DNA from: Raillietiella orientalis
Taxonomy: Eukaryota
NCBI GenBank assembly: GCA_036172245.1
Contig: JAYWIR010000011.1
Span: 682,001 to 746,000, forward strand
Length of the DNA stretch: 64,000 bases
Reading direction: 5' to 3'
The position numbers and the translations under genes are program-made. Shown in pieces: positions 8,069-36,038 of this stretch (positions are counted from its first letter, which is position 1; every line of letters begins with the position of its first letter). The notes below the pieces were generated by a model. That model had not been told where the DNA came from, made no database searches, and was given only the letters and a program-made list of their open reading frames with translations.

Positions 8069-8345
8069 CTCCTCTGTGTTTCACCGCCTCCCACGCAGTA
8101 ATATTCAACGAATCCGAGTTGAACTTTGCTCTCTCGCAAAAAGATCCTTCCATCTCATAGTCCCTGGCAAACATTGTTTTCATCATGCGCTAAGGTATTT
8201 TAAAAAATCCTCATATGAACAAACTACTCTTCTTTTGGTATTTATATTTGCGTCGATGTACTGTGATTCAGATATAAAAAACACCAACCTTTCCCAAAGT
8301 GGACACTTTATTTTTGAACAGAGGCGCGCTGACCAGTTGGGCCAT
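8069..8345 (-). pseudogene. Truncated, diverged second MAN2C1 copy (exon 1 and a possible exon 2 remnant)
   Basis: ATG at 8345 starts [23 protein letters not shown], identical to the intact gene. An extra A (A6 at 8276-8281 vs A5 at 34629-34633) shifts the frame. Past the identical tract it reads QYIDANINTK vs [11 protein letters not shown] weak ungapped match to exon 2 lies at 8163-8069. Confidence 0.6.
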
Positions 8346-9686
8346 GGCGCAGCCCGAATGCAACCCAAAGAAACTTTCAGCACCTACAACGGAAACGTAT
8401 CCACCACCACGACCACCACCTTGCAATCCTGCAGCAACCACGATCCCGACGACGTGCACTCCACGCTGCTGCACCCGCAAACACGAACTCCCTTGCGCCG
8501 CTTCGACCTGACCTGCGGCACCGAGAGTGTTGCCAACGACGCACGTCTGGCGCGACACCCAGTCGCCACTTTCTCCGTCCAGGACGCGGAGGCTGGTCTG
8601 CGGCAAAAACCACCTGCCTGCCTGCCAGCAGCAGGAGGGACCTCGCGGCGCACGCCAGCAACACACACACGCGGGGAAGCACTCCCATCTCGCTACGCAC
8701 GTGTGCATGCAAACCCACGTTGCCAACGGAACACTGTCCGCCGCCGACACCACCACCCTGCGCGCCCCAGGCAACAGACACTCGGATGCACCATCCGTTC
8801 ACACACAACGCTCCCAACCATCGCCTCCGCTCCTTGGCAAGCTCACGCTGCTCCTCCTCTCCGACGGCGCCAGCTGTTCGCCAAACGGAACCAACGGCTG
8901 CCGCCCTTCCCGCTCCCTACCACCGCCGGACGAGCCGCCGGCAGGGCTTTCTCTGCATCCCTCCACCCACGCGACGACCTCCTCCTCCTCCTCCTCCAAA
9001 ACATACGGATCACTCCCAAACGAACAGCGACGCACCAAACCAACGCCACGTCCGAACGTGCAAACACGCAACACAAAAAAAACACTTTATTGCCACGTGC
9101 ATAACACATCCGCCGGCCGCTCCCGAGAGCGCCAGCAGCTCCACCAAATCAGCCAGCCACCACGCACAGCACCGTTTGGATCTCGAACGGAGAAAAGTCC
9201 AGCGTCACGCTTCCGTCCGAAAGGGGCACGTCGCCGACGTTCTCCTCGAAGCCGGTCGACCTGTGCACGGACACCACGTCGCATCCAAAGGAAAGCCTGA
9301 AAAGAAGTTCGCAAACTCAGTTGGGGCGCCTTCGTCCTCGCCACCGCCCAGCCGCCCGCACCGACGACGACGACTCCCGAGAGCGAACGCGCTCCTTCTC
9401 CCCTCCGATCCTCGACCACCGTCGTCGTCTTGCTGGCGCTCGCCCGCAACGCGCCCGACGTCGCCAGCGACCTCGGGGACAGGCTTCTTCTGCCGGGCGC
9501 GCAGCAGCGTGCTCGGGAAAAACACCACAACGCACGCAAGGAAAGCAAAGCAAGAGAAAGAGGAAACGCGCACCTGCTCGTGCATGGACAGCTGCTTGGC
9601 GCATCCAACCCGTTCGTCGCCAAGCTGCATGTCCGCTTTGGGTTTCCTCTTTCGAGTGCACACGCGGAAGGAAGCTTCAGACGTTG
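8257..9686. repeat. Direct repeat copy 1 (1430 bp): MAN2C1 last-intron end, last exon, polyA signal, spacer and start of exon 1
   Basis: Matches 34610-36038 from TGTACTGTGATTCAG to CTTCAGACGTTG. ORF-track translations are identical at offset 26352. The only difference seen is a 1-nt homopolymer indel. Confidence 0.97.
9086..9091 (-). terminator. Polyadenylation signal AATAAA of MAN2C1
   Basis: Minus strand reads GGC-AATAAA-GTGTTTTTTTTTGTGTTGCGTGTTTG, about 58 nt after the stop codon and followed by a GU/U-rich tract. Confidence 0.7.
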
Positions 9687-12600
9687 CAAGGAAAAAGCGG
9701 TACGTATTTGAAAGCAAACGTGTTGGTTTGAGAACAGAGGCGTGAATCAGAAGGGAAGGTGATTACCAATGAGGCATTCTTTGCTTCAGGAAGTCATGTT
9801 TTTCGGATTTGCTGTTGGCAACCGCACGCGTGTTCCGAACATGCCTAGGCGCAAAGCGGCAGCTGGAACACGGCCACCACCCTTGCTGCTTCAAGGATGA
9901 GGCATGCGGTGAAGCCACAATAAAGTCCCTGCTTCCGATGGGGTCCCACCGATGGATCTTCCGTTCCGTAAGATGTTTTTCATTAGAGGGTGGCAGGATC
10001 AAGTAGCAGCAACACGTAAGCTTCTTCAGCACCATATGTATCGTTTTTGCTCCGATGCTTAAAACGTACCCGGAGTAGAACTGCGCGAAGACATTACCCG
10101 AGGAACCTTGAGCTGTTCGAAAGTTCCTTAAGTTCCTTTTTCATGGTCGTACGGGCCAAGGGCCGAATGCAAGTTCGTAACATCCTGTTTCCCAGTTGCC
10201 AGAAAGCGAAAAATACTTTGCTATGTACAAGATCTCCCTCTGAACGGCGCATGCACCTGCAGAGTCGAGTGGTTGCGGAAGAAGGCTTAGGTCTACCTCT
10301 GCATCCCGTAAAGCCGAACGCGAGCGAACAGGCTAGCCCCAATGGAGAGAAAACCATGGTGGTCAAGGGGGCGGCTGCGGGTCCCAACTACGTAGGTGGA
10401 GCCGCGCGAACAAAAAAAGGTCTCTGTCTCAACAGTAGCTTCACACCCGTCTTGAACCCCTGTCGCACACCAAATATTTTCCAACAGCGACGAAATGGGA
10501 GCCTGTAGACACAAGGGCACGAGTCGCTCGGAAAAGCTTAGAAACGCTCCGCTGCCTTCTACTGAAACGGTGCTCCAGTAGAAAGCACGACGGGATCCCA
10601 AGAAGTGGGAACGCACCATTCTCCTTATATGAGCGCGATGGCTAGACAACCAGTTAAGCGGGAGGTCTCCTGCCTCTCAGCAGAGTCAGTAAAACTGGGG
10701 AGCGGCTGGTTAGCTCCAGAACTTTAGGACGCCGCGAGACCAACTGATCGCGACTATGGACCGTCCTCGTGAACGGAAATAGGGACAGCTTCGACATCCC
10801 ACTGGATGAACTAGTAATCCCCACCATCCTCCGGTTGAGTGCTTCTTCCTCTCTGGTGGCGACAGAAGGCGAATTTCTTCCTGGACTGGTGTTTTCCGTG
10901 CAGCCAACTCCGGTACCGAGATGAACTTTGCCAGCTGGGCGGGGCGATCGAATAGCCATCATGCCTGCTTCTGGACCGCGAGTCTTTTTTCGCAGCGGAC
11001 GGCAAGGAGTAGCAGGAGCCCCCTTGCACTGCCCCTAGTCAGCTCCTACGCTCCTACTCCTAGGCGGTTCTCCTGTACGCTGCGAAGTCACTCGACCAAC
11101 GGCGATGCCGTGCTGCATCATCCGTGCAGTAGCAGTCAAGCGAATCGCCACGCCGTGGTAGTGCGCCGGTAATGGTCGTTCGCTTAATCCCACCCGTGAT
11201 GGGGAGGGTAGCAAGATGGCCTCACCTCCTTCCCAAAATCAAGGGGGACACCTTGAACAAAAAAGGCAAAAAAAAAAACGGTGACTTTCCCTTTCTTCCC
11301 CATTCGCCGGAGACGATAAATGTTTGCGCCGTGTTTCCTTATACCTTGACTATATACACATAATGATGGAAATCTTTTTGGATCTTAGTTGTTTTCCTTC
11401 CAGCTTTTTTTTCTTCTTCTTCTTTCGAATTTTCTTCTTTTTTTGGTTCGTCGAGTGCCCCAAGAACCGTCGCGCGCCTAGCGGCCCACGCAGAACACTG
11501 CCCCACGCCGTCCGAGGATGTGCTAACTCTTCAAGATAGGGGGCACCCAGGGAGGGGACCACCCTTGAATCCACGGAGGGCTCCGGAGAAGGGAGTCCGT
11601 TTGTCTTACGCCTGAGGAAGAATCCCCGAAGGGCATTTCTTCTCCGGAGGAGAAACCCGCAAGGGAACCGTTCCCAGCTTCCTTCTCTGAAGAGAACCAC
11701 GAACGGACGCATCCCAATTTCCTCTGAAGGGCGCTCCATGAAGACAGTGGCACGCTTCCCTGCACACTGGAGAGGCGTCATCGATCCACCAGCTCCATGG
11801 TACGAGACGGAGGGATCTCAACCGGAGGGGAACCCCGAAGGGAATCCTTGATCCTGTTTCCTGGAAGGACCGCGGAGAGTCGACTCCTAATCCAGGCCAC
11901 TCATCGGGGGCATCTGGTTTTATCCGCTACCAGTGCCACACCTGACTATGGGCTAACCAGTGTGCTCTTGCTGGGGAAACCCGAACCCACGACGTACACT
12001 CCTTTCTCTGGAGTCAATCCTTACCCCTGGTACGCCTGGTGTTACGCGCGGAGAACGCAACCACGTGGCCTCCGACGCAGGGTATGTGCGCGCGTGTGTA
12101 TTCCCTGAATCTCGAACCTCAAGGCACGTTCCTCGGAAATCGTGATTTTTGAAACTATGGGGACCACCGAAAACGCACTTTTGGCGCCTCCTTCCTGTGG
12201 TGATGGGAAGAATCCCCCTCCCGTCCTGCTTTGGTCTCCAAACTCATTCTTTCCGAAAGTGAACCCAATCCAGCATTCATGCGGGTTTCCTTCCCCCCCC
12301 CCCCTCCCGAGGCTATTCCAAAAAGCACGAAGGAAATGTCATCACGCAGCTGGATGACGGTGCCTCCTTGGCGCGTTGCCTTCCCGTGCGACCGATTACT
12401 ACCGAGATCGCGCGGGGGGGTCTACCAAAGACTGCTCGGTGATGTTGCCGAGCGTCGGCGTTCCGCAAAGCTGAAACCTCTTGCCAGATCAACAACAGCG
12501 TGCGGCAAAAGAGAACAAAACAAAAATGCACGGCGGAGCTTACTGTGCTTGAACGGAGCTGCCGAAGGATTCGTACAACCGCAGGACCAAGGCAGAAGGC

Positions 12601-15600
12601 ACCCTTTCGGCCATCTTCACGGTTTCCAGAATGACCGCGGGGTGGCTCACAGTTACGAGATTCCACCTGGGAGGCAGAGTGCTGCTTGTCATGGCCTTGC
12701 TGATCTCAATGGGGCAGTTGAACTCGTAGGCTTTTTGGATGACCCCAGCTTCTTGGAAGGAACCTGGTTTTCGTCACTCCATGAGCATCACGCGCACTCA
12801 GTCCAACACAAAGAGTTTTTTTTTTTGTTTTTTTTTTTTTACCTATGTGGGGCATCAAGGCGTACTTGAAGCGGTGGCTTCCCATATCGCACTTGTCATC
12901 TGGTTTTTTCGGGGCTCTCAGTAGCGACAGCTCCAGCAAACCGCCTCTGGAGGACCAGCCATACTTACAATCGTTGAGCACGCTAATCCCGTATCCGTAT
13001 TCCGACACGTCTGCCCATCTGGAAGAAGTGCAAATGGGTATGCAACCAACCGACCCCTGAGCGTCTTTGCCCGAGTACCGAAGCTGAATGAATCCACACA
13101 GCATCACCAACCGAAACCACACCTTCCCTTTCATAAAATGTATGCAATAAACAATACTAAGAACTGAATTGACCGGAAACGCGATGTTTAAACATTCGAG
13201 AAACGCTCGAAGAAACGAATGAACAATAACGAGGTATTCTCTTTCCCTTTCTTTCTCTCCTTAAAAAGTCATAGTTACGACTGCAGCAACATATGGGATG
13301 TGTGCGTTTCCGGATGACACACGTTCAACACATCTCTTTTTCGAGGAAAAAAGGGTGGAGAGGAGGTGGGAGGAAAGGGAAACAAAACGAGAAGCACGCA
13401 CGCTGTATCCTCAAACCTGTGTCCGCAGACCTCGAACTTTGACCAGTCCCAGGACGTGTTCTGATGCGACGGGCGACTGTAATGGCAAAACTGCAGCTCG
13501 TACGTGGTTTGCGTACTGACTACGTTGAAAGGAAACTCAACCTGGAAGCAACGCACCAATCAGAGCTCGGTGCACTTGTGGTTCACCACCGCCAAATCAC
13601 GTCAAATCAATGGCAACACGCAGCGCCCTATTTCACGCTTCGCCAGCAGAAGGTGGCACCTTGACGATTAAGGGTGAGCTTCTCCTCGGGAGCACCTCGC
13701 GATGCGCCCGGAAAAAATGCAAACAACAGGAAAAGTTTCGACACGTTGAAATGCTTTGGAAGAGATACTCCTCGGCAGCGGCAAAAAAAAAAAAAGAAAA
13801 AAAAAATGTAAAACAGAAAATATCTGTTGCCCTCGTCGGGACGCTGTTACTGCTGCCGCGCACATGTCACGATCGAAAAACGCCCTGTTCAGGGAAGAGT
13901 TCCGCAATTTCTCTGGATAACATGGTTAGCGAACCTTTGCGGCATCCTTCGTGACAAAACCAGGCACCCGCGCCGAGCACCATGGAGAATGCGCCAAGGC
14001 GCCGTCAACCTTGTGGGCGAAGAAAGGCACGCGTGTGTGTCCACTTGATGCTAACCGCGCGATGCTCGTCAAGACTGCTTGCGACTGCTGCATCATTAAC
14101 AGTATTGCGAGGGTCCGACTGTCACGCAGCGCCCACTTAGTGACACTTCGCTTGACGTCCGCTTTGGCGGCTGCAAGGAAAAACAAAAAATGAGGACTGA
14201 TAAACACGAGGACGATGGAACACTGAATATCACTGTTGCTGTCTGTTTTTCCTTTTTGCTTTTTCGGTTTCCCTTTTTTATTTTCGTGGTTCGCCAAGTA
14301 CTCAAGAACCGTCACTTCACACCAAGAAAGCATAGGAGCGGTTCAACAACGCCGCCAGAGCTCTCAAGTTTCTACCACCGCCATGCATCCACGGTTGCAG
14401 GGGGACTTCTAGCATGACCGGGGTCTCGCTTCCCGGGGGGAAGGGAGGGGGAGTCGCATCCCCGAAATCCTTGAGGTGTGGGCCGATCGGGAGTCGTCCA
14501 CCGTACCTGCTGCTGGACTGCGGCGGCGCCCTCCGAGATCGGTGGCACCGCCACAGACTCCGCTGCGACGGCCCTTCGCGCGCGGCGATTTTTGTTGCAT
14601 CAGGGCCGTAGCAGTGACCTACCGACTGCCATATGCTGGAGAGTCGGTCACGGAGACGGGAGGTCGCCAGCACGGCAGATGCCCATGTGAGGACTGCAGC
14701 GAGGTGGCGAACCCATTTGGATGGTGAAGCGCCTCTTCTTGCGCGAGGTCCTCACGCCGGCCGCATCCCTAGCAGCACTTCGCTGCCTATGCGAGATCGT
14801 GGCTGCATGGAGCTACGCCAGGAGAGGTCAGAACGACAAGGATGCCATGAATTTTGAGGTCCTCTTCTTGAGGACAGCGTCAAGATGGCTCCATCTTAGA
14901 GTCTTGAAACAGGAACTTGCCGATATCCTTACAAGGATGCAGAGGACACCCTCTAGCACACAGTAAACCCTTCCCGAACCCCCCCCCCCACACACACACA
15001 CACTCTTTTTTTTGTATTTTTCCTTTTATTTTTTATTTTGTATCCCCTTATCCTGTGCTGCCGAGGTGAACCACGTCGCCTGCGCGCCGGTTCTCTTCCG
15101 TATATACACGCAACGTGGCGGGATCACGCATCCTGCCACTTCCCTGTATGTTTATTTTTAGAATAAACGCCCCGGCGTGACCCGGGTGTCAACCGACGCG
15201 AGCGCCTCCTAGTAACGCACACCCGAAGCCTGAGCGTCATCTCGCGGCGGAGACTCCCAGCCCTGCGGGCGCATCCAAACTCGGCGAACCCTTCCGACAC
15301 GCGGTGCCGCGCAAGGGCGCCAACGCGGGCAGAAAGTAGTGGCCGCTGGCCCTCGAAATTCTTCCTCGAACGAAACCAGCAGGGATGCTGTTTTGACGAA
15401 GGGCATCTTCGCTGGTTTTGAGGAAGGGACGACAGCGAAGAGTCTCACACAACTGGACCACCTCCACACTTCTCTAGGAGCACGCCGTCCGAGCAAGGGT
15501 TACGTTAGAAAACGATCGATGCTGGATTTGCGCGTCAATTTCCGGAGCCGCCCCTCCCGCGAAACGTGCGCGTGCGCGAAAGGCGAAATCGAACACGAAC

Positions 15601-18600
15601 CTTCAGAAACTTCCTGTTTTCCCTCCAACTGACTTCCGTAGTGAATTCGAGGTACGGAGAATCGGCTTTCAGCGAAATCGTCTGGCTGAGAAAAGAATCA
15701 CCAAATTTCATGGTCCATTTCAAGGATGAGAGAAGGGGTCCCGTGCAGTCAGCTGTCACCTTTGTGCATTCCACCTGGAATTGTAAAATCTGTCGTCGAC
15801 GCATGCCGGCCTGTTCCCGATGCTTTCTTTCTCTCTCTACCTCTGTTCAATCGCTAATGCCTGCTCCTGTTGTCCCCCCTCCCTCCGCAGCTCCCTTCCC
15901 CCATCTTCATTCCAGAGCAAAGTCGCACACCACCGTGTCTGCCACCTACCTCGGCACTGCCATTCAACGCACGACGACTTTCTAGATGGTTGTCGATGAC
16001 GTCCCAGGCTTCCCAATAAAACGGCATGTCTTCGAAGATGACAAACTGGTTGGCAAGCTTGCCGGGTTCAATGGATTCCTTCTGGCTTCCTTTCACCTTC
16101 AGACTTTTGATTCTTCCGGATGCATCGACCAACGCTGTCAACTTCGAGTTCGATAAGACGAAGACGGAGTCCCGCATCTCTAAGGGGAGAAACGAAACCA
16201 ATGAATGGCGGAAAGGGGCCTGTGGTGCGTCGAAGTTGGACACTTTTCAACTGCAGGCGAACGTCCGCGGCCCCCACAACGACGGCGGCCCCTCTCGGTG
16301 CACACTTCGAAGGACGAGGGCACGGCGCAACGCCCCTCCAATATTTCCGAATCCTCGTGGCGAAACTCGCGGCACAAAAGTCGGCATCCGTGATGCACCT
16401 AGATGGAGCGGAGACTACCACGCCCTCATTCGAGTGCTACCCCGAACCCTGGGCTCTGTTTCAGCACCCTCGTATACACCGCGCACAAACAGCAAAAGAT
16501 CCGCGATGTCGTTTTGTCTCCGAGCTGGTGAGCGGGAAACAAAACCTCAGTTTCCCAGAGGAAACGACCCAAGCGGACGAGATGACTTCCCTGCTGCCTG
16601 GCACCAAGGTGCCACCCTGCAGGGGGCACTTATAGGCGTGAAACCTGCAAACCCTGTGCTTGGATGCTTTGTTACCTTCTTCTCTGGGCGTCCTGAACGA
16701 CATCAATCTTCACAGTTCTACGACTTCCCCTCCAAAAAAGAAAAAATAAAGCCTGCACCGGACGGTCCACCTGTCCAGTAGACGGAAGCAAAGCGCACTT
16801 CCTTGTCCTGCACAAAAACGTGACCACACTTCGATTTTTACTTGTGGAGTTGTGCCTAAAGCTACGTCCAAGAACAAACAGGGCGCCACATCTTCAGAGA
16901 CGGAGAATGCCGGCATGGCATTCCTTGTCATCATGACATGACGATGCACACCGACGACACGAAAGCTTCGCAAGCGGAACCCCGATGGTTCGAGTGGTGA
17001 TTCAGCCTCGAAAGCACGCGAAGAAAGGAAACAGATCCAAGATCCCACAACGTCCTTCCATTCATTAAAACAAACGAAAGATCGTTCGATTTCCCTGGTG
17101 ATCCGTGCTCAAGACAGCACCGCTTGCATTTCGTGTGGAGTCCGACGAAGACCCAGACGTATGCGAAAAGACGCGAAAGGAGTGTACGGACAAGCTTGCT
17201 CCCTAGAATTTCTTCTTTCGGGTTCGTTTCTGACCCGAGGAATGGTACGTTTGCATCGACTCCTCGGCTGCAATGACACGGCCGGACTCCGGAACGTTTG
17301 AATTCGAAGAAATGCGTGCGCATCTGACCAGGATGTTTCCCATCACCGTTAGGATCCGCTGGTTCATTAGGCCGCGCAAGTGCCGGGTCCAGATTCCGAA
17401 ACATCTTTTCCTCCATGCCTTCAATCGTTACAGACGAAATGCGCCTTTCCGATGCCTCAACTCTGGCTTTACGCGCACGTTTTCGTAGCCGGAAACAAGA
17501 ATGGCACGGGAGTTACACGAAGCGGACATGGAACTTGATGACATGGGGGGTCTCCTATCAGCAAAGAGAACTACACATGCATGTAGCAGCCTCCGTACAA
17601 CACGGATCCGTATCAGGGCAGCGAAGAAAGTGGAGGAGAGTCCCCGGGTAACGCCGCGGTACGCACGGCGTTGCGGATAAATTTCACGTTTTTGGTACAG
17701 TGCCAGTTCATCCGTTTTCAAAAAGAATACGGAGACGTGACTTAAGTAGGCTGAATTCTGTTTCCCTCAAATTTTCACGAATAAAACAGCGCAAGATACG
17801 TTTTCCAGCGGCGCGAATGATGGAGCTGGAACCATACAACCGTTTACATCGATGAAATACCAACAAAAACTCCAAAGAAAGCTTCCTTTCTTATTACCTA
17901 AAGTTGAGTAATAAATGCTCTACGGTTATGACGTTTTAAGACACATCCATATCTTTTGATAAATTCCATACATATTATGGGTCCATAGCGCGCAGGGCTC
18001 GTCTAACTCAGATTCGCGTGCCGCTGAACGTCATACGGGGGCTTACAGCACACATACATACAATACACGCCGTACACACAATGGAAGTACGTAACGTAAC
18101 TGATGCTAAAGAGCATCATCCAGAAAACGATCTGGGCTCTTCTCACGTTTACGCAACGCGGAGAACTGAATCGCAATTTACCTAACAGTACATAATCCAA
18201 GGCGATTCTTACAGATGGCACTTCATAGCCCGTAGGTGCCACTTGGATGAATGCTAACACGTTTCCATTCGGCAGAGCCTGATAAGCGTATGCGTTCGGG
18301 ATGCTTTCCATAACTCTGGAATCCATTTCCATCACCTCCCTTCTCTCCCACGACAACGGGTTGAGGCACACATAGCTCACGGGAATGTCGAGACCATCCT
18401 CGAAGGACGCCAAACCTTCAGAAACGATTCGATCCCGCAGGTCGGGGTGCAACGTGGGGCGGGCAACGAACCGAACAGGAGATTCAGGCACGACTCCGCA
18501 ACGTCCTCCAGCAGACTTATGGCTTTGCGGTAGGAGCTTTCCGCTTTCTCGACCACGGCTCGAATCGACGTGCCGGGAAGCACGTCATGGAACTGGTTCA

Positions 18601-21600: not shown

Positions 21601-24600
21601 CAAAAGCACGGACTGCTGCTAAGCAAATACTACCACTTGTGAGCCACCGCCCTTCGACATCTACTTGGTGGTTCAATAAGCTTTCTCGAAGGTGGCCGAA
21701 GAAATGTCAGGAAGGAAAACAGAGACTGAAAAAAAAAAATAGCGAAGCGCCTCGAAATTCGAAAGCAATGAGCGACCGCAGCCGGGCGCGGGGCGGCCGC
21801 TGCAGACACACAAATAGCCGAAGCATCTTCCGGGTAAGGTGGGGTGCGCTGGTCACAGAGTTTGCTTAGGGTTGCAACTGCCGCAATGCATTGCCTGGCT
21901 GCAACTACTTCTGCCTTGTTGGCTGTTGTCGGAAATGCCTTTCCACTCGAGGAGGAATGTTTTTTTCCTTGTCTCGTTTGCCTTTCTTTTCTCTTCTTTT
22001 CTTTTTTGTGCGTGAGGCAACGAATGGCGTCCGGAATTGTTGCTCGAAAAGAACGACTGCATTCACGTCCAGAATGGCATTTTCTCTCTCTCCGACGCAG
22101 GGAGGAGGAGAAGATGATCGGATTTGAGTCTGGCTTGCTGCTGCTGCCAACGTCTACGGGAATGAATGCGTCCTGATTTCGTCCGCCCAACGACCCAAAC
22201 CTGAGACTTCGGACCAAAGGGAGGTGGGGGAACGAGCAGCCACCTGGAAAGGGTGCCAAGGAGCTTCGGCACACAGAGCCGCAGAGCAACGCGACGGCTG
22301 CCGACCTCCGTTCGCGCTGCAGAAAAAGGACGGACACCAGCGAGTTGCAGCTCCGCCAAACGATCTCGCATGCTCACCCACCATATTAGAACACGGATGG
22401 GGCGGGATAGATGAATGGTTGGGTTACGGACAATTGTAGGGGCACTGACGAACTTGGGGTGCTATGGGATTCGCAAAGAAGAATTGGGGCTTGCAACAGC
22501 TCGTTAGCTGCTTCCGGCAGGAAAGATTCCGAAGAAAAACTCGTCGCGCACTTCCCTGCGCAGCCCCCGTTTTCCCGCATCCCGAACGCCTGCGTGTTGC
22601 CCACCATGAAGTCGTGTCCAGAAGGAAACGCAGCATCCCCGTTAGTACCGCGGAAGGGGGCTGTTTCCTCGCTGATCCCGCTTCATGCAGGTTGCCAACA
22701 CCAGCAGCTCATCGCCACGCGCGTGCGCGCTTTCCTCCTCGCAACTCAACCGCGGGTCGCACCTAGTTTTCAAGAACGAGAGTGACCGGGACGAAGGTCG
22801 GGGCCGAGCGTGAGCGTCCTTCAGGAGGGGCCCCTCAAGTTCAGGGTCGCGCGCGCTCTCAACCCAGTTCCGAATGCTAAAGCCACGCGAGGCACTCGGT
22901 TCGCCGCGGATTCGCCGCCGCCGGGGCGATTTCGTTCCATCCGAATCGGGAAACTCCCCGTCTAAAAGGCACAGGAGGGGCTCAGCGTGGTTCCAGGCCT
23001 TCAATTGCACTGCTAGCATGTCGAAGCCACCCGCTTCTCGAACGTTCTTGCAAGGAAGGAGGAGGAAACCCTTGATCGTTCGCGAATGGGCGAACGTTAA
23101 ACGCGGCAAGCACGAGGTAGTTCCGACGTGGGGCAAGTTGGGGAAGCGGCAGTCACTCACGAGGGAAGCACTTACGTTTAGAACCTGAGGCAGCTGCGGT
23201 GAGAACCCGAAGGAATCCGGCAGCCAGAGTTCCTTGCAGACTTCTCCGAATTCGTCCAGGAAAAACTGCTGTCCGTACAGCAACTGCCGCATGAAGGACT
23301 CCCCGCTGCAAAAGATCACTTTGAAAAACGGTGGTATTGAGGATGCCCCAAGAATAAACAAGCGCTAACACACGACAGCTGTGCGTTCGGGCGAATCATG
23401 CTGATACGGGTGCAACAAATCGCTGCGAGTGTCGAAAAACACGGGATGGTGAACATGGGGAGGGGGAGGTGAGGAGGGAGTGACAACAAGGGACACGAGC
23501 AGTCATTTCAGGATCCGCGCTTTTGAACGGCAAACAATCCTCAGATTTACTTGAAGGAGAGAGTTTTTTCCCTTTCGGCACGGTCTGAGCACGCGCTGCC
23601 AACTTCCGCAGGATGCCCGCGCTCGCCAACAGATGCGGAAGAGATGTGTGATGACCGGTGGACCTTCGTACGGATAAGGCCTGCGTCGAACCTGGAAGGC
23701 CCCGCATATGGAGGGTTGCTCCCTGCCGCTGCTCCGATGCAGCGCGCCATTGCATGGAAGAGAAGCGGCCCAAGGCGGCTACCGCAAGGGGCCACCCTCT
23801 TTGCTGCTCGCTTGCCTTCTGACTGCGCTTTCCCCTGATCAGGATGCGAGCCGGTGCCGACGAGTTCCTGCTGTTGCTCACCGTGTGGCAGATGCACGCA
23901 GCACGGCACTTACCACTTCTCGCACGAGCTCGCGGGACTGCAGAAAAGGCAGACTCTCTCCCGGATGGAGGAGGAGCCTCCCGCATCCTCCCTGACCTGC
24001 TTCTCCGATCCCTGAGATCAGGAACGCGAGCGTAGTCACACCGGGGACCGCAAGAAGGAAGCACGTGGTCTGCGCGGGGCGGATGCATGGTCAATGCTAT
24101 GTGCTCCTCTTGCGAGAAGCACATAGCCTTTTGGAAGATGTTTCGCTCCAGATCGTACTGCAACAGTGGCTGTAAGGAAAGATTTGGATGGAGATGACCG
24201 ATCGAGCAGGATTGGCCCACGGCGACTATCGCAACGTCACCGCCACAGCCACCCTACCCTCTCTGTCTCGTGGAACACTTTGGTTCACGAACCTTCTGCG
24301 GATGCGCTTCAATGGAGGGGAGTATGGGAAGCGGGAACAATAGCAGTGCATTCAAAGAAGACAACGGCAATGTGCAGAGTGAGAGCAGGAAGTGACAACA
24401 GAGAACCACAGGAACGAAGAAGGATCGAAGCAAACCAAAAGGCAGATGCAGGCTAAGCCCGTGCCGGGAGCTTACAAGAAACACAGAAGACAGGAAAGAG
24501 AAAGAGAGTTAGGGGGTCCGGAAGAGACCACGGATTTCACCGGAAGTCAGAGCAAAACCAGGTTCCCTGCGGACTGAGGTGATAAGTCACGTGGCGGTAT

Positions 24601-27600
24601 GGACGGCAACACAGCGTTGCAGCGGCCAAACACGATGGGGCTTGGGGCTGGAAAGGAGGAGGGAGGGAGCAAACTAACGCTGCAGCCTCCGTTTGAAGTG
24701 GCAGAGGAGCAGACGACAGTCCAGAGCTGAAGTCACACAAAAAGATCGCGTCCCCCTCTGAGGAACTTCCCTCGGTGGAAACCCAGCGCTCGGTGAACGG
24801 GCCACCAGCAACATTTGCAACATGTTCTGTATCCCGGATCACGTGAGCGCGCGCGTTTCAAAGCAACAGCACCCTTCCTCCCCCTTCCGCCGCATCTTGA
24901 ACGAAAGCTAGGAATACCATGGCTGGTTTCAAGGGAGAAAAAGGGAGGGGGGGGGAAGTCTGGAAACTGTTCCTGACCGCGAGCTGCTTTGACATTTTTT
25001 TTTTTCATATTCCCTGCTGGCTGCTTTCTTAGCGATAGGGAAAACTAGCAACGCAGGGAGAGCGTTCGCGAGAAGCAGCGTCGACAGGACCTGAAGGTAT
25101 TAGAGAAGAAAGCATGCAAAGATAACACCGGGAAGAAGAATCTTCATGAACTGAAGATCGTCCAATCGGAAAGGATTGGTGTAAAGTTAATGACAGAATA
25201 GTGGAAATGACCGGTAGAAAACAGTACCCTTTTAGAGGTCGCGGCTGTGGATCTTGTCCCTGTCGTAGCAGAGAATATGAGGCTACATCCTTAGTGAACA
25301 CTTGAAAATCTCCAGAACTTGCATCTCGATGGTTTCAATCGTAGCACCACGTGGACGCGTGCACGCTCACTTGGTGCTTACGCAGACTCTCCATCATGGG
25401 AAGCACCTTTTTCTCCTTTAGATTACTGCATACGCAAGTTACCAATAAGAAGAGCAAGCAAGCAAACAAAAATGCCAGAACTGCCCACAGAAACTGCGAT
25501 TCGTATCAAGTGTCTCAAGACGCATGCATTTCTGTGGCAGTCCTGGAAACAACCAAAGGAAGGCTTCTCGAAATCATGTTGTGCCAGCAGGGTCCTCTCC
25601 TACACGATAAGAGCTGCAGAGAACCGCACGATACGAAAGTTAAGGAAGCTGCCCACAAGAAGCGGGCTCGCGAGCACTCTGCACCGTCATTTTGCCCGCG
25701 CCATCTCACCACGCCCCGAGGAGCTGATAAAGCAAACTGGATTCCTTCAGCACGACTGATAACGGGTGCTCACTCTCTGAGACGCAATTCGCTTTTTTGT
25801 TGCGTCCTTGTCAACAAATCTTTCAGGCGTGCGATGCACTTGAGGGTCACGAAGGCGAGGGAATGTCGCTCGGCCTATCCACTGGTCAGGTGAGAATGAC
25901 AAACTGGGAAGCTCTGCACGGTTGCAGACTGCAAGGAACAAAGGATGCTGTGAGTGAAGCGGTCCTAGGATGGGACTGCGACTGCACAAGAGGACACGAC
26001 ACGACTGCTCCAAATGCAGAACCTTCCTACAGGAAACCTCTAGTAGCAAACGAACAAAAGCTGTGCATCGACTTTTCGGGAACCGAATCCTGTGAAACGG
26101 AGTATATCGGTGGTGGCTATCGGTGGCTGACAGCCGCAGTGTAGATGCTGCTACTGAGCAACTGAGCAAGTAGGCTGCACGAAATACACGTACACTGCTG
26201 TCGACACGACAATGACGCCATGCAGAGGGCAGTGGCAATGACGGGGAGCGGACACTTTCAACGCCGCAATCAACCGAAAATCTTCTTTGACCCAACACGT
26301 CGCAAGCATTCGAAATCGCCTGCATTGACACTAACCTCAAACAAAATCAAATCAAAACGACTCCCACGTAGACTATTAATCACGTAATGAGGACCCCGCA
26401 GCCAGCAAACCTACGGAACTGTAACTTGTGGAGATACATCACTTAAAGTGTCTTCGAAAGCATATAAGCAGCAGCGCATCACATCCGGACCGAAAATCTT
26501 TTTCCGATCATGACGAGCGGACATGCACAAGGGATGAGCACCTTCCTTGTGCACAACGTTTCGTGTTAATCATACCACTTATTGGTAATCAAGAAAAGAA
26601 AAGAATGAACACCAAGAAAACGAATCCGCAGACCAGCTGCATTCCTTTCCATTACGAAGACACGACCCAGAGGCGAGCCGAAATTCTCGAATCTTTCACC
26701 AGCGAAGAATCAAAAATGACTGCAGAAGAAAACAATCCTATACAGCTTAATTTAAGAAAAATAAGAATTCTGCCAGAGCAAATTCCATACTTTCGCCGTG
26801 TAGATACAGAAATCGCCTTAAACTACCATAACAGCAACCGACTGCATTCGAAAATCATCTGCACGAGGAAAATTGTTTTGGTGGAACCAACAACTTGGGA
26901 ACACCAAAGTAGACTCTCTAAACAGAAGCAGCAGCTTTGTTCGGATGGCAAAGGACCGTGCCATTTGGTTTTCAGGACCTCTATATTACGGAGAGGAAAC
27001 GCCAAGTTTCCATTAAGAGGGGGGAATGAAAAGGAAAGAAACACAGATGAATAGACATAACGGAGGTGAGATCATGGATTCCCGTCAACAGAATTGTTCA
27101 CTGCTCTTCTGTCTCAACGCTGTTCCCACACGACCATAGAAGAAGGAGAAAAAACAACAACATTCTCCACTCTAAGCTCATGGTTTCAATACAACTTGAC
27201 AACAGCGACAAGGATTCAAAACACTATTCCATGATGAAAACGCAAACCGGAAGCAATATTGCATCCGAATTCCGAACCTCCCACTGAAGCGCTGAAGTAC
27301 CTACCTATCTACAAGGGAGAAACGAAATGCCCAACGGCTGGTACTCCGATTCTCGATGTGGCAAGGGAAACAAAGAATAGTAAAAAAAAATGAGATAAGC
27401 TTCTCTTTGTAGTTACAAGTTTTCACTGATATGTAGCGTACTGGTCCATTACAACTAAAGCTATGCCGGAAACAAAGTCGATCAATGAACTTTTTTTTTT
27501 TTTTTTTTTTTTTTTACAAACACATAACATAAAAGGTTCCATACGTCCGATATCACCTAGGCTACTAGTATTACCTAAGTGTCTATCGAAGCATCCATAC

Positions 27601-30600
27601 CGGTGCAAACATCGCTGGAGCCGCTGGAGCTGATTAGTGCGGAAAACGAATTGCTCATCCAATGAGCTCGGCCATAAAGAGTGCATGCCGCACGAATTTC
27701 CCATTTCCTGGAGCTCATTAAAAGTTTCACTTCAACATGAGTACAGCCTCCGGAAGACCCACACTGATGGCAGGCATTTCAGTATTATACCAGACTAGCT
27801 CCACACTTGCGCAGATGACATGTAAATCGTGGATTGCGACAGAGTAGCTGAAGACTGCCGGCAGTCTTCAGCTACTCTGCCGCAAAAACCGGAAAATCGT
27901 ACACTTCAATGTGTTGATAGCTCATGACATTTACTGCGACGAAACAAAGCATAAAGGCAGCACATTCGCTGAGATCGGGTGACAGTATGATTTACACACT
28001 CAAAGAGTTAAACAAAAAAAAGAAAAACAAAACCAACCTCCGGACGAAATTAACCAAGATTTTTCAAAAAGATACAGGTTGCAAGAATTTGCATAATTAC
28101 CGATCGATCGACACGTGGAAAAACAAAACACGGAATAACTTAACCAGAAATCTGTGGTTACAAGGTGAACTCACACCCTATCAGAACACGAATAATCAAC
28201 TTCTGAAAACAGAGAATGAACCTGCAAACTTACCTCGGCAAGTAACCATCCATCTCGACCCAGCAGCCACCCACTGGGATGAACCTTTTCTGTTTTGCAA
28301 GCTGCTGTATCTTGCAGAACAGACTGGGATAGTACTTTTTGACCCATGAAAGCTGCTGGGCCTGGAGGGGGGGGGGGGGGAAAAACACGTACACGATGGG
28401 AACCGGTGGATCCTATTACCTGAGAAACAACAAATTTGAAATCTTCGTACGTTTCCATCAACCGGACAACCGTACTCCAGCTACGTGCACATTTTCGAAT
28501 CGTCTCGCTGAAAGGCCACAACCAGGCGCAATCGATGTGGCAATGTCCAAACATTGAAAACGTAAGTGCAGAATGCCCATTCTTCAGCTTGAAGAAGTTG
28601 CTTGAAGCCAGCGCTGCCTCGCTAATTCAAATAAAGTAAATAGCAGCATAATAGTCACAATAGGGCACAAGCTAGGAAAAAAAAAAAAAAAAAAAAAAAA
28701 CACAATCACAAAGATCATTTTTAGACACCGGAAAGCTGTGTAGGAGAAAAAAATTTTGAAAAGAGAGAAAAAAAACATCCACCTGCACTTTGCGAAAGAA
28801 CGAGGCCACAACAGCTATTGGAGGATTTTTGGAGGATTATCTGCGAATGCTGCATTAAACAAAGTAAAGTACCTTGGTACAAACACAGTACACAACTTCC
28901 TTGGGTCACAAGTAATGCTGCTTTATTACAAATTAAAGTCGCTTTCGAAAGTGCCCAGCACTAATTCTGAGTTTTGGGAGAAGGCATCCTAGAATTTGCA
29001 AATGAATTCACGATCCATTCCTGATAGATGCGGCAACCTCTATCATAGAGTTCCTTTCGAGCAAGATTTCCCTCTGAGAACGGATCACTCAGAGGGGCTT
29101 TTAAAAAAGGATGAACCAACTGTACAGTTCGACGAAAGCAAGGAGCAGCATGGAGATGGGACCTTGGGAACCAAAGTTCACTGAAAAATGCGCTGAAGAA
29201 GAACTCCTATCTGAAGAAACACCGAAACACACAATCACACGAATCCCATAGCAGTTGACCCATGGAGACGAACTGCGCCAAAGGGAAGGAAACCTGCGGT
29301 CTCCAATAAAGAAGGTAGAATTCTCCACGCACTATCCCCTATGGGACCTACACATAGTGCACAGCTGATCAAAACAAACGATCGAAATAAACACCTTTCG
29401 AGAGAGAGAGAGAGAAAAAAAGGGAATCACAAACATGGATTCCCATACAAAAGTGCTACGGAGAGCCCAACACATATCGGAAACCAGAGAACAGATACTT
29501 GCTCCCGTGTCAACCGGAAAACTATGAAAAGTGACCAACGTTTCTTTTTTAATTGCCAGATCGAAATATTCAAAAGAAAAAATTCCACATTTTCTCGAAC
29601 ATGACGGAATAAAACGGTATATGTGAACGAGAAGGCGGACGACGCTCTCGCGAAAGGGGGGAAAAAACAAAGAAGACTGCTGATGAGGATCCGAAGCCTT
29701 TGTACACCAAATCCGGTCTTCCATTTCGAGTGCTTGTGTGGCAAATTTGTGGCTTGTTTCTGTCAATTTACCACGTGGAGCAGCCAAAACTGGGCAAACT
29801 TCCGATGCGATGAGGCTTTGAACGAGACTACAGAAGAGGTCATAACGAAGCCTGTGCTGTTGCACAAACAGAACAAATTCACCACAAGTTAGTTTTGACT
29901 GTTTTTCTCTTTGATCGTATTTCGGATAGTTTTTTTGGCTACAGTGTACGTCCACAGTAATCAACAGAAACGGGTAGCAAATGTTCAAATGCAACCGGAT
30001 GAGACCAAACCCTTTTATGGAATCCTTCGGATGCATGCAATTGAATTGGGAGGCCTTTTAATCACAACAGCAAATACGGACTTGAAATTAAAGTAACAAG
30101 AAGCCTGCACTGATCATTTTTGCCGACAGTCTTTTAAATGTAACTCAAACAACTGGCGACACTGAATTAAACATGAAATCTTGGCACACTTCCGATTACA
30201 AAGACAAATACGTACTCGAGTTTACCCTCTTGTATTTTATTTACTACATGATTTGCTACATGGAGAGCTTCAAAAGTTCTTGCACAAGAGTCTGGAAAAA
30301 ACTTTGCAATCTCCAACAACAACTGCAGATCGATGTACAAGTGGTACATGGGCAGGTCTACCAAACGGATTTCCACATTTTTCAATTCAAAAAGCAGTGC
30401 TTCATCAGGAGGGTCTAAAAAAGAACAATTTGAAAAGTTTTCCGATTTCATGAATAAACGAAAGTGTATTAAAGTGTACTCTTCCGTTTGCTAATTCCTT
30501 GCAAAACACAAAAGATCTCGGATCACACGGCACACTCACGGCAGCAGACGGTAATTGGCAATTCGAATCTTCATATTTGAGAATGTCTCGTGCTTTTTTT

Positions 30601-33600
30601 TTTTGAAAATTATATCATTTCAAATAGAACTGATTCCTTATTCGATAGCAAATCAGTTATTTTTCACGTTCCTGAAAATCGATCGGCCCTTCTTAAAAAC
30701 GATACAATTTCTAACGAAAAATTTATAGAAACGAGGTGGAGGGGGGGAAAAGCACCGAAAGTGTGTACTTTGCAAAGCCGAAGGCAATTCTTCGAGAATC
30801 CAACAGGTCTTTAAAAAATTAGGAAACCACTGAGGAGTTTAATAGAACCGATTTCTATCTTAAACATATAAATAAATTTACATCAAGCTGTTCACCAATT
30901 CCAAAACATACAGGGTTTTCAAATCAATAAATATTAACCAAACTAAATTTAGAAAACAAAAAAAATACATACCAATGAGTGAGTCTTTTCCATTTGAAAT
31001 CATTTTATTACATGCCATTTCTATGTAATACGTATAATATTTATCAAAGGCACCAGAATCTTTAATTGCAAATTTGTTTTTTCCTTCGTATTCCGAGCAG
31101 AAACCCTAAAAATTCTGCATGTAATTTTTATTTTTTTTTTTGCATTTTTGATGACAAGAAGGTGAATTTGTATTTGCACAAGTATGAGTTCGTAGATAAG
31201 CAACGTGAAAAACTTGAAATAGCTTGGCCCATTTTCAAAAAAATCGTTCTCACAATCTTTGGAACCATACCACGTAATTTTTTTTGGCCTCAGAAACCAC
31301 GAAATAATGACCTACCCATTTTACTTAGACAAACAAATGAAAAAAGGATTTCAATCAATCTGCTGTGGAAGCTCTTGAATTTCAGCTTCAACAATCCAAC
31401 ACAACTCAAAAGAACTTAAATTAACCAATAATCCAGTAAGATCTCATTTAAAAGGATACCAAAAAGAAGAATTTTAGTTTATTTCAACCATAGGGAACAT
31501 CTTGTGACCAGAAGTTGCCAGTGTAACAAATCCATGGAAACTTTTGTGCAAAAAGATAAACAATAACTGGATTCAGCAAACTGCACAATGCATAGCCAAT
31601 GAACATTAACCACAGATACACTAGGCATACTTTGACCATAGATGCACAAAACATACGTTTTTCTCATTTTTCGAAATATGAAAACACTCAGTTTCATGTT
31701 TTTGATTTACATGTTGTGAAAATACATACAAATCTAAACATGGAGAATGCTTTGTTCTCACTTTCACTTTTTAAGGCCCTTTGAATATTTCAGCACATTT
31801 CTGAGTATGAATTTTGGAATTTTCATTTTGCATTGAACTATAAGGGTAGACTTTGATTTTAAAAACACTTTAGAAATGTCATGGCTAGAAAAACAATGCT
31901 ACTTTTTTCATTTCACAACATTTGAAGACAAAGAATGGATTCCAGAAAACATTCTTTATGCAGGGCTACACAAACTGAGATTGCTCACTCAACATAATCC
32001 TTCATTCAATAAGTAATTTAAGTTTGTCATTAGAAAATTCTTGGAACATAGGGAAGAAAATAAGTTAAAATATATAATAAAAATTAAAAACGATACTAAA
32101 ATAATACTAATTGAAAATTAAATGATCTAAAGATTGAGTGGTAGTCCTTCAAAAAAAGTTGCAAAATTAATGTGTTAAAAAAAAATCTAATTGACATTTG
32201 GATATCACTTAAACCATACATCTTTCACTTCTACACTTATGATAAAAATCAAAAACTCATATTAGTGCCTTTCAAGGCAGAAGAGATACCATTCTCTGAG
32301 AAAAGTTTGGGGAATTTTTTGAAATTGATATCAAACTGTAATCCAAGATCACCCTAAAAACACTTCTTTTTATTGTATTTTGGTTGCCAAATGAAAACTG
32401 ATCAGATTCTCCAAAAAATACAAACTAATGCAACTGACTAAAATCAGCACAATACAAAGTCTAAACCTATACAACAAATCTAAACCTATGTAAAAAACAA
32501 TTTTATTATTATTATTATTTACATCAATACCTGAATGATGTCTCCAGAACAATCAAACAGTGTCGATTCTCCATCACACTCCCAGAAAAGATATACAGCC
32601 CCAGAATTCCAGTCATGTGGGATTGTAAAATTTATCTAAAAATAAAAAAAAAATTATGCAGACATTGAGAACAAGACAGAAACATTTTTAAGGCATACAT
32701 TATAAAAGATATACATTTTTTATGTGAACACATGCATCCCCCAATTTCCAGAGCACTAATTTGCTTATTTGTCAATAGGTTTACTATAATGTCCACTTCT
32801 CATTTCATACAAGGAAAAAAAATTAATATCCATTTTCCAAATTCCTTCATGCACGCCAGCACTCAGAGAAAATAAAATATCACTTCTGAAACATTACGAT
32901 CATCTTATGCACACTAATAAGATGAAGAGTGACTTTTTGACTTTAGAAAATCCATTATTACAATACAACCTCTGACCCTGTTTCACAAAAGAAGTCTGAA
33001 AAAGTATGATATTCTGACATGTTTCATTGAAAGTAGGTGATAATTTCAAAGCAAACACAGTCTCTGCAGGAATAATCCAAGTCTCCATTAAAATTTTTTT
33101 TACTCATGCTCGCTTTTATCCACTGTTAAGTGCAAATGGTATGTAATTCTTATTTTCCATGAACAAATTTTATAAAAAAACAAATTTCCAATTTTCTTTA
33201 AATTCAACATCGTCCAATTACATGACACTTCTGTAGTCAAACTGATGAATACACTTATCTATCTTTGAACGTCTTGAAGCAATTGAACTATGTGAAAAAG
33301 GTCTTTCATCATTTCTTAGGTGTTTGCACAAAATTTTCTGATTCCCAAATCAATTTTACACTTTTAGTGCATGATAGAAAGATAAATCAAAACTGACTTC
33401 GGAAAACTGGGTACATAAGTGGATACCTTCAAATAAATTTTATCAAAAAAATACAGACTTTAGCTAAAGAAATCAAAATACAGAAAAGAGGATGTCCGAT
33501 GAATACTTTTTACATAACAATTATTCGCAGTTTTTAAGATCTTTAACCTTTTTAATTGCAATGTAATGCCAAACATGGCTTGTAGGGACAACCAGTTATT

Positions 33601-34697
33601 ACCACTGGACATTAATACAATTACGAAATCCTCCATAATTTCATAATTCCATAATTCCAAATTTAAAAAGTCTTTAGAATGCAACAACAACAGCCTTTGA
33701 AATAAACAAAATTTTCACATACGCCTTTGAAACACCATAAAATGACTGTAACTCAAATTGGAAAATTTCTCCACCACATGCTCCTAACCTAAAGAGACAA
33801 CACAGAATTATATATTGAAAGAAAAAATAAAAACACGAAAGTGAAAAGCTTTAAAAAATAGTTTTTAAATATTAATCTTTCCTCTAACCAAACCATTTGT
33901 TCAAAGTGGGAGGATATTAACCTTTTTTTCTAAAGGAATCTGCGTACATCATAACATTTTCAAACATTAGTTTCAGAGGGAACAATACCTTCTCAAATTA
34001 CGAGGCTGCAAACTCAATCCTCAACCCATACACAACAATTAAAAAAGCAACATATCACTTCAAAGTCAATGCGTTGGGAAGATTACTGAACTTCAAGGAC
34101 TATAAATTGAAAAATAATACTGCATAAATAAATAAATGAAAAACAAAAACAATGCCAGCTCATACCAAAAGCATTATCAACATTAGAAAACACAGAAAGT
34201 TAAGAGATAAAATTACAATGAGCATTACTTATTACAATACGATTTTAATTTCCAAGGCCAACTACAACATCAAAACTATAAGTTCCCCAACACATTCTTT
34301 TCCTATTGATGAACCAATAGAAAAATGGTGTATAAAGAATGCAGAGGTCTAAATAAAAAAAAGTCTCCAAACTCAAACCTTAAACCAGTGAGTCGACCAC
34401 AAGGGGCCGAACTTTCTTCCTACTGATACAGATTCAAATGTTCCGGATTTCACATCATTAAAAGAAAGCTTTTTCCAGTTATTAAAAATGCCATCAAACT
34501 TCCAATACTGTATATCTAAAAAACAAAAGTAAAACCTTAGACAAAGAAAAATTCATACCTGTAACTGGTAGTTTGTGTTTGTATAATTTTGAAGATATAT
34601 TTACATCGGTGTACTGTGATTCAGATATAAAAACACCAACCTTTCCCAAAGTGGACACTTTATTTTTGAACAGAGGCGCGCTGACCAGTTGGGCCAT
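9149..34697 (-). CDS. MAN2C1: Cytosolic alpha-mannosidase 2C1 (GH38), about 20 exons
   Basis: Phase-consistent GT-AG exons: 34697-34559, 34515-34379 ([11 protein letters not shown]), 32635-32531, 31105-30973 (YIEMACN), 30414-30216, 28621-28420 ([12 protein letters not shown]), 28361-28234 ([10 protein letters not shown]), 23305-23176 (WLPDSFG), 20833-20685, 20626-20471 (GFGDGGGGP), 18959-18842 ([15 protein letters not shown]), 18801-18689, 18641-18472 ([11 protein letters not shown]), 18415-18182, 16179-15950, ~15774-15601, 13541-13417, 13018-12843, 12763-12544 ([10 protein letters not shown]), 9296-9149 ([19 protein letters not shown]). Confidence 0.95.
27840..27879. repeat. Perfect 40-bp spacer-less palindrome in a MAN2C1 intron
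   Basis: CAGAGTAGCTGAAGACTGCC|GGCAGTCTTCAGCTACTCTG. Extends to 27834-27885 with one mismatched pair. Confidence 0.95.
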
Positions 34698-36038
34698 GGC
34701 GCAGCCCGAATGCAACCCAAAGAAACTTTCAGCACCTACAACGGAAACGTATCCACCACCACGACCACCACCTTGCAATCCTGCAGCAACCACGATCCCG
34801 ACGACGTGCACTCCACGCTGCTGCACCCGCAAACACGAACTCCCTTGCGCCGCTTCGACCTGACCTGCGGCACCGAGAGTGTTGCCAACGACGCACGTCT
34901 GGCGCGACACCCAGTCGCCACTTTCTCCGTCCAGGACGCGGAGGCTGGTCTGCGGCAAAAACCACCTGCCTGCCTGCCAGCAGCAGGAGGGACCTCGCGG
35001 CGCACGCCAGCAACACACACACGCGGGGAAGCACTCCCATCTCGCTACGCACGTGTGCATGCAAACCCACGTTGCCAACGGAACACTGTCCGCCGCCGAC
35101 ACCACCACCCTGCGCGCCCCAGGCAACAGACACTCGGATGCACCATCCGTTCACACACAACGCTCCCAACCATCGCCTCCGCTCCTTGGCAAGCTCACGC
35201 TGCTCCTCCTCTCCGACGGCGCCAGCTGTTCGCCAAACGGAACCAACGGCTGCCGCCCTTCCCGCTCCCTACCACCGCCGGACGAGCCGCCGGCAGGGCT
35301 TTCTCTGCATCCCTCCACCCACGCGACGACCTCCTCCTCCTCCTCCTCCAAAACATACGGATCACTCCCAAACGAACAGCGACGCACCAAACCAACGCCA
35401 CGTCCGAACGTGCAAACACGCAACACAAAAAAAACACTTTATTGCCACGTGCATAACACATCCGCCGGCCGCTCCCGAGAGCGCCAGCAGCTCCACCAAA
35501 TCAGCCAGCCACCACGCACAGCACCGTTTGGATCTCGAACGGAGAAAAGTCCAGCGTCACGCTTCCGTCCGAAAGGGGCACGTCGCCGACGTTCTCCTCG
35601 AAGCCGGTCGACCTGTGCACGGACACCACGTCGCATCCAAAGGAAAGCCTGAAAAGAAGTTCGCAAACTCAGTTGGGGCGCCTTCGTCCTCGCCACCGCC
35701 CAGCCGCCCGCACCGACGACGACGACTCCCGAGAGCGAACGCGCTCCTTCTCCCCTCCGATCCTCGACCACCGTCGTCGTCTTGCTGGCGCTCGCCCGCA
35801 ACGCGCCCGACGTCGCCAGCGACCTCGGGGACAGGCTTCTTCTGCCGGGCGCGCAGCAGCGTGCTCGGGAAAAACACCACAACGCACGCAAGGAAAGCAA
35901 AGCAAGAGAAAGAGGAAACGCGCACCTGCTCGTGCATGGACAGCTGCTTGGCGCATCCAACCCGTTCGTCGCCAAGCTGCATGTCCGCTTTGGGTTTCCT
36001 CTTTCGAGTGCACACGCGGAAGGAAGCTTCAGACGTTG
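34610..36038. repeat. Direct repeat copy 2 (1429 bp); GC-rich island that provides the MAN2C1 start codon and upstream region
   Basis: Near-identical to 8257-9686, with AT-rich sequence on both sides. Confidence 0.97.
35501..35648 (-). pseudogene. Orphan duplicate of the MAN2C1 last exon (with AATAAA at 35438-35443) upstream of the gene's ATG
   Basis: Identical to 9149-9296 and preceded by only ~390 bp of last intron before the homology stops at 36038. Confidence 0.9.

Follow-up and report, generated by a model that had tools for sequence, protein, structure and literature searches.

The stretch of DNA considered here is 64,000 nucleotides of the Raillietiella orientalis genome (GenBank assembly GCA_036172245.1, contig JAYWIR010000011.1, positions 682,001 to 746,000 of the forward strand), referred to below as the window, and all coordinates are positions within it. 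On its minus strand lies a gene for a putative alpha-mannosidase of the MAN2C1 type, bracketed by two nearly identical direct repeats, each of which joins the tail of the gene to its head. The gene together with one repeat makes up a unit of 26.35 kb that may have been laid down along a circular or concatemeric template for slightly more than one lap. The edge of each repeat that lies in the last intron is called p, and the edge that lies in exon 1 is called q. The features of the gene and the repeats are as follows.

9149 to 34697, minus strand: MAN2C1-type GH38 alpha-mannosidase gene, working model of 20 exons
34536 to 34697, minus strand: exon 1, with its ATG at 34697; contains the q edge at about 34596-34610
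8243 to 9692, minus strand: repeat copy A, exact over 8257-9686 save one extra A in the run 8275-8280
34596 to 36043, minus strand: repeat copy B, exact from 34610 to 36038
9149 to 9296, minus strand: functional last exon, in copy A, with the TGA at 9151-9149
35501 to 35648, minus strand: spare identical last exon, in copy B, about 0.8 kb upstream of the gene's ATG
9086 to 9091, minus strand: the gene's AATAAA, with a spare copy at 35438-35443
8346 to 9085, minus strand: GC-rich spacer of 740 nt from AATAAA to ATG, with its copy B counterpart at 34698-35437
8243 to 8345, minus strand: exon-1 remnant of copy A, disabled, with a frameshift and then three transitions
8243 to 8281, no strand: ragged q-edge, adjoining the left flank and holding all four differences between copies A and B (8250, 8252, 8256 and the A-run indel)
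36038 to 36044, no strand: p-edge, adjoining the right flank, with a 5-nt match (AAGGA) to the continuation of the intron in copy A

The gene was modelled using tblastn, spliced alignment, an open-frame splice search, Pfam and PDB matches, and the names of relatives. The working model has 20 exons and 19 introns, all of them GT-AG, and a coding sequence of 3,150 nt with 1,049 codons and a terminal stop only; as modelled, the gene between the repeats is shown to be intact, opening with the ATG at 34697 and closing with the TGA at 9151-9149. In the stretch of about 18.3 to 16.2 kb the exon boundaries are unsettled, 48 splice combinations leaving the frame open, and an alternative donor near 34557 is possible for exon 1. 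Of 146 open reading frames (ORFs) of 78 amino acids (aa) or more that overlap the unit on either strand, eight matched Pfam profiles, and these gave Glyco_hydro_38N, Alpha-mann_mid and Glyco_hydro_38C in domain order on the minus strand. One exon matched PDB chains of the Ams1 alpha-mannosidase (E 2.6e-20). The closest full-length relatives are alpha-mannosidase 2C1 (MAN2C1) proteins of tick, cuttlefish, centipede, lamprey and bat, at 45-47% identity over 777-953 aligned residues, and no nearer relative was present in the protein libraries searched. A search with the exons against 1.84 billion representatives returned 391 matches at E up to 0.001; the top-scoring ones were 46-51% identical, and among the matches listed none was above 66%. 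Spliced alignment with four relatives gave scores of 1,812-2,052 over nearly the full length of each relative, with most exon boundaries in agreement among the four. By these matches the predicted protein is of the MAN2C1/Ams1 class of GH38. The alignment of its first 40 residues to the N-termini of GH38 relatives passes over the repeat edge without a break, and the q edge therefore sits inside the true exon 1.

Within the gene, two introns share a weak inverted match of 80 nt (17672-17750 against 19591-19512; 72.5% identity, E 1e-4). The GC-rich introns also contain minus-strand open frames of 241-285 aa (21633-22373, 23399-24253 and 29335-30057) that have no Pfam match and are probably a by-product of base composition.

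Each repeat, read along the minus strand, consists of the end of the last intron, the last exon, the TGA, the AATAAA, the 740-nt spacer, the ATG and the head of exon 1. The last-intron stretch is 390 nt in each copy, running from the edge at 9686 (copy A) or 36038 (copy B) to the acceptor at 9296 or 35648. The TGA is at 9151-9149 in copy A and 35503-35501 in copy B, the AATAAA at 9091-9086 and 35443-35438, and the ATG at 8345 and 34697. The spacer presumably holds the promoter and the 5' untranslated region, and the point at which tail was fused to head must fall within it. In copy A the head of exon 1 is a remnant: its first 23 codons are identical to those of the gene, an additional T (+1) then leads to a stop at codon 26, and recognisable homology reaches about codon 35. 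Of the three transitions in the remnant, one changes Thr to Ile in a conserved Y-T-D motif, one is synonymous and one changes Val to Ala. Alignment with relatives showed that they share the Y-T-D motif, and it is lost in the copy A remnant.

Much of this arrangement had been described in an earlier note on the window, made from the sequence alone. The order of elements in the repeats that it gave was confirmed base by base, its naming of the gene as MAN2C1 agrees with the domain order, the named relatives and the Ams1 structure match, and the geometry that it proposed, a circularly permuted unit with a tail-to-head junction in each repeat, holds. The spare last exon that it placed 5' of the ATG is indeed present and identical to the functional last exon. 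Its figure of about 29 codons in each repeat is the point needing revision: an exon-1 head does occur in both copies, and the codon counts for copy A are those given above.

The two repeats are the sole long repeat of the window. Self-BLAST of the 64 kb returned one non-self match, the direct pair 8243-9692 and 34596-36043, and a repeat search (seed 14, minimum length 100) found one direct family and no inverted pairs. The copies are 99.66% identical over 1,450 columns, with three mismatches and two gap openings, at a start-to-start distance of 26,352 bp. Their longest exact run is 1,410 bp (8277-9686 and 34629-36038, offset 26,352), and a second exact run of 24 bp (8257-8280 and 34610-34633, offset 26,353) is divided from it only by an A6/A5 run. 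Beyond the exact runs, 11 of 14 bases match in the ragged q-edge margin (8243-8256), with G/A transitions at 8250, 8252 and 8256. At the p-edge, identity stops abruptly at 9686/36038, and a 1-nt gap is followed by the 5-nt match AAGGA. Neither outer junction has long homology, the gap and short match at p and the 11 of 14 bases at q being all that lies past the exact run. GC content drops abruptly at both, from 0.65 to about 0.35.

The differences between the copies are clustered to an unusual degree. There are none in 1,434 exact bases as against four (three transitions and one homopolymer indel) within 38 bp of the q-edge, and by our own arithmetic four differences placed at random over about 1,448 bp would all lie in a single terminal 38 bp with a probability near 1e-6. 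Changes specific to copy A, in a dead remnant, indicate that copy A has its own sequence, and this tells against a double placement of the same reads. That the differences cluster at an edge favours a copy that is real and physically separate, and an event that was recent and left a ragged junction. Three transitions in 7 bp and a homopolymer slip at a junction would also resemble error-prone synthesis, which reportedly accompanies break-induced replication (BIR) and the copying of circles (PMC13287614).

A perfect 12-nt inverted repeat with a 74-nt loop (9556-9567 and 9642-9653, also 35908-35919 and 35994-36005) lies 33 nt inside the p-edge, and could allow a hairpin to form close to the breakpoint; the search for hairpins at the junctions gave nothing beyond small inverted repeats, of which this pair was the best. 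The window has no match to an Rfam family and contains no tRNA, and the two tandem-repeat arrays present in 7000-37500 are both outside the copies.

The tail and head of the gene are contiguous twice in the assembly. A single-copy gene has no tail-head junction and a two-unit tandem has only one, so that at least three units, or a ring or concatemer, are needed. The layout would thus require either an array of at least three units cut down at its outer units by two deletions, or a ring or concatemer that was followed for 1.43 kb beyond one lap. We put at about even the chances that the structure is real as assembled and was made from a ring or concatemer. On this account a head-to-tail template would have been followed through one whole lap and a further 1.43 kb in laying down the 26.35-kb unit. 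That template would have been either a unit-length circle, copied or rolled a little beyond a single turn, or else a concatemer or array with three or more units. Non-homologous, ragged junctions would then have joined the product to AT-rich intergenic DNA, and the two direct repeats would be the outcome of the overshoot, which begins at p in the last intron and ends at q in exon 1. Joining may have been replicative, by template switching of the kind seen in BIR and in microhomology-mediated BIR (MMBIR), or by end joining, and the edge mutations probably date from the joining event. A more specific form of this account is offered tentatively and, taken by itself, is unlikely to be correct in every part: germ-line reintegration of a gene-bearing extrachromosomal circle through 1.054 laps of error-prone repair synthesis, with entry at p, exit at q, and the exit mutation cluster as its signature.

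Several points weigh against an origin from a ring or concatemer. The copy number and both junctions depend on one assembly, and no donor locus is known for the unit. The tail-to-head fusion point was not located in the 740-nt spacer, where GC content and strand skew are uniform throughout. Consensus error could account for the differences at the edge, since transitions and a homopolymer indel are typical long-read errors; so could an older duplication whose margin escaped conversion. The identical sequence results if two deletions trim an array of three units. Finally, an overshoot of 1.43 kb out of 26.35 kb is, by our own arithmetic, about a 1-in-20 outcome even under the lap model.

Base composition bears on several of the alternatives. 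Along the mannosidase gene (9149-34697) there is a steep 5'-to-3' gradient: exons 1-5 have a GC content at third codon positions (GC3) of 0.27-0.40, introns of about 0.30 GC and an observed/expected (o/e) CpG ratio of 0.46, and exons 8-20 have GC3 of 0.53-0.80, introns of about 0.5-0.6 GC and CpG o/e of about 1. The flanks have CpG o/e of 0.51 and 0.60, near that of the 5' part of the gene, and GC3 is correlated with local intron GC (r = 0.78). Since the AT-rich, CpG-poor 5' part resembles the flanks and GC3 follows intron GC, the gene looks native to its genome. Foreign or contaminant DNA was considered and judged unlikely on the same evidence, the likeness of the 5' third to the flanks and the tracking of local intron GC by GC3. 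The shifts in composition do not coincide with the repeat edges. In exon 1 the sequence turns from GC to AT about 60-85 nt in from the repeat edge, within the repeat, and near p the GC change point that fits best is at 9518, as compared with the edge at 9686; a GC step exactly at the repeat edge, which would be a sign of long-term conversion, was not found. Shifts lying off the edges are more in keeping with breaks made recently, at arbitrary sites, than with long-term conversion acting on an old pair.

One other explanation is a collapsed tandem array. It holds that several identical 26.35-kb units, with truncated units at the ends, are present in the genome and that the assembler walked the loop once. 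The assembled path, which goes in at p, makes one lap and comes out at q, would be the minimal traversal of such a graph, a unit of 26 kb exceeds many long reads in length, and the repeats are identical over 1,434 bp, all of which such an array would accommodate. An array with truncated ends, however, needs the same origin as the structure read as assembled, and would alter the copy number of the unit and not its kind. We regard a collapsed array as possible, though well short of probable.

An assembly artefact carries similarly modest weight in our judgement. By this explanation an ordinary single MAN2C1 gene, or a contig overlapped at its ends or circularised, was falsely joined to AT-rich sequence. 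The abrupt switch in GC at both outer junctions is what a false join could produce, the interiors of the repeats are perfectly identical, and there is one assembly only. Against it, the window is without any N, and the edge of copy A differs from copy B at four sites and yet matches at 11 of 14 bases past the exact run, which marks it as having a sequence of its own. The gene, moreover, looks at home, with its 5' CpG o/e close to both flanks and its GC3 in step with its introns. The usual artefacts of long-read assembly are inverted or adjacent duplications, which also counts against this explanation.

Homogenisation of an old duplication by gene conversion, with only the q-edge margin having escaped and diverged, is improbable. 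It would explain the confinement of differences to one margin, and at 0.616 the GC content of the repeat exceeds the maximum of 0.593 reached by 1,426-bp windows in the gene body, as GC-biased conversion predicts. The p-edge, however, is without a diverged margin, the GC shifts lie away from the repeat edges, and three transitions in 7 bp suggest one complex event over slow decay.

Least probable is an active, excisable cassette whose repeats regularly release MAN2C1 as a circle, to persist or be amplified in extrachromosomal form: the geometry would permit it, with 1,410 bp of exact direct homology and a circle bearing the spacer, all exons and the poly(A) signal, but every direct-repeat pair shares this property, and the unit has no recombinase, replication protein or other mobile-element domain, no target-site duplication (TSD) and no terminal inverted repeats (TIRs).

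The structure is not a mobile element. The outer flanks share words of up to 6 nt, the longest of them not in register, so that no TSD was found, and no inverted pairs of 100 nt or more, as TIRs, occur in the window. None of the 146 ORFs of the unit has a transposase, reverse transcriptase, integrase or Rep domain, the Pfam matches being to GH38 only, and none of the flank ORFs of 55 aa or more that were scanned (150 of 156) matches a mobile-element family. A 470-aa ORF of the repeat had no scoring match in the protein library searched. Decayed further copies of the unit are likewise absent from the flanks: local alignments scored 13 and 9, as compared with shuffle maxima of 16 and 14, and the best match of flanks to unit by sensitive blastn had E = 0.028. 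A literature search on MAN2C1 with tandem duplication found nothing related.

These results agree with the report in the earlier note that no transposase, TIR or TSD was seen, and they shift its emphasis, since the "excisable unit" that it stressed is supported by geometry and by no TSD, inverted repeat or mobile-element protein. Its suggestion that recombination between the repeats would release a 26,352-bp circle with the complete gene is sound to that extent: a crossover in the 1,410-bp run would remove the gene as such a circle, with a solo repeat staying behind, and by the same geometry the gene would be duplicated by unequal exchange; nothing further was found for it. The origins that it listed (integrated circle or rolling-circle product, array remnant, collapsed array and mis-assembly) proved to be the right ones to weigh. 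What is new here is the need for at least three units or more than one lap, the clustering of differences at the edge, and the position of the unit between two unrelated genes.

Those two genes, both on the plus strand, are as follows.

1394 to 6932, plus strand: left neighbour, a PPP1R12/MYPT-type gene with ankyrin repeats and a PRKG1_interact domain
36710 to 37514, plus strand: right neighbour, an AKAP7-like gene with an AKAP7_NLS 2H-phosphoesterase domain, from a profile match

In the left neighbour, PRKG1_interact matches fall at 6299-6448, 6475-6597 and 6822-6932, and poly(A) signals at 7361 and 7929 both precede the junction. On the right, positions 17-56 of the AKAP7_NLS profile lie at 36710-36844 and positions 100-208 at 37038-37514, a placement by which the gene starts within about 0.7 kb of the junction; the AKAP7-like ORF had no match among longer proteins. 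The unit occupies what is otherwise an intergenic gap of about 2 kb, from the 3' end of the left gene to the 5' end of the right gene. That the unit splits one host gene was also considered, and was ruled out, as the end of the left gene is at 6932 and the right one starts beyond 36.1 kb.

The PPP1R12/MYPT-type gene has two similar terminal exons encoding leucine zippers (coiled coils), at 6475-6597 and 6822-6932. Both match the end of PRKG1_interact above the curated cut-off, and they look like alternative last exons. Further to the right are a RabGAP-TBC gene (plus strand, 43959-44703), an SDA1 gene (minus strand, 49333-53310), an ORF with a GRF zinc finger (plus strand, 57472-57687; 24.9 bits, just below the curated cut-off of 25.9) and a gene with an N6-adenineMlase domain (plus strand, 58830-59992). 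The right flank also contains palindromic stretches at 55550-55626 (78 nt, 87% self-complementarity) and 49278-49317 (40 nt, 95%). The region around the unit is gene-dense and AT-rich, and no transposon proteins were met in it.

In summary, the structure is best read as a known kind of duplication scar, and as a recent structural rearrangement. If it is real as assembled, it would provide a nucleotide-level case, from an animal germ line, of a whole intron-bearing gene copied along a tail-to-head template for more than one lap, and this would be direct evidence that the intermediate was circular or concatemeric, something that cases of one lap can do no more than suggest. The MAN2C1 copy would also sit where a single crossover deletes or doubles it. 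If it is not real, the locus marks an assembly error around a GC-rich gene within an AT-rich region.

Among known systems, rotated segment order together with junctions of microhomology or small indels is given as the signature of a circular intermediate in those parts of the literature that treat human segmental duplications (cSDPs) and cattle KIT alleles (PMC7450558; PMC7188851). Duplications of this class, which comprise the human cSDPs, those mediated by extrachromosomal circular DNA, and the KIT alleles of cattle colour-sidedness, are like the MAN2C1 unit in their ring-rotated order, in junctions with short matches or small indels, and in having no transposon machinery, at least as these parts present them (PMC7450558; PMC7188851). 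As described there, each runs for exactly one lap and is identified by setting it beside a donor copy, whereas the MAN2C1 unit overshoots by 1.43 kb and its donor is not known (PMC7450558; PMC7188851). For their own cases, the authors of the cSDP study state, in the portion concerned with mechanism, that they saw no sign of rolling-circle copying (PMC7450558).

Transgene concatemers offer a second parallel. A single copy flanked by a truncated copy does occur among them, according to the relevant part of a review (PMC8701086). As there, the MAN2C1 unit has a full copy between truncated copies in the same orientation, with a clean internal tail-to-head junction and non-homologous outer junctions; concatemers, in contrast, arise from injected DNA, whereas the MAN2C1 unit is endogenous and intron-bearing, belongs to a germ-line genome, and is not known to have an extrachromosomal source (PMC8701086).

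With regard to mechanism, mutagenic repair copying of circles is described for yeast telomeric circles (PMC13287614), and MMBIR and the switching of templates at stalled forks (FoSTeS) are among the mechanisms discussed for circle-derived duplications (PMC7450558). Copying of a circle by BIR or MMBIR would explain the passage of more than one lap, the ragged junctions, and the cluster of base changes with a homopolymer slip by the exit (PMC13287614; PMC7450558). For the MAN2C1 unit this is a likeness that we infer, the unit being known here solely as sequence.

A last comparison is with low-copy repeats, which predispose to recurrent deletion and duplication by non-allelic homologous recombination (NAHR), as is familiar from the genomic-disorder literature. 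The MAN2C1 repeats differ from such architecture in being the gene's own ends, in that deletion would yield a circle bearing the gene together with a solo junction, and in that no variant alleles are known. As in NAHR-prone loci, direct repeats that exceed 1 kb and are almost completely identical enclose a unique gene, in this case with a 1,410-bp exact direct run on either side of unique DNA, with the copies 26,352 bp apart.

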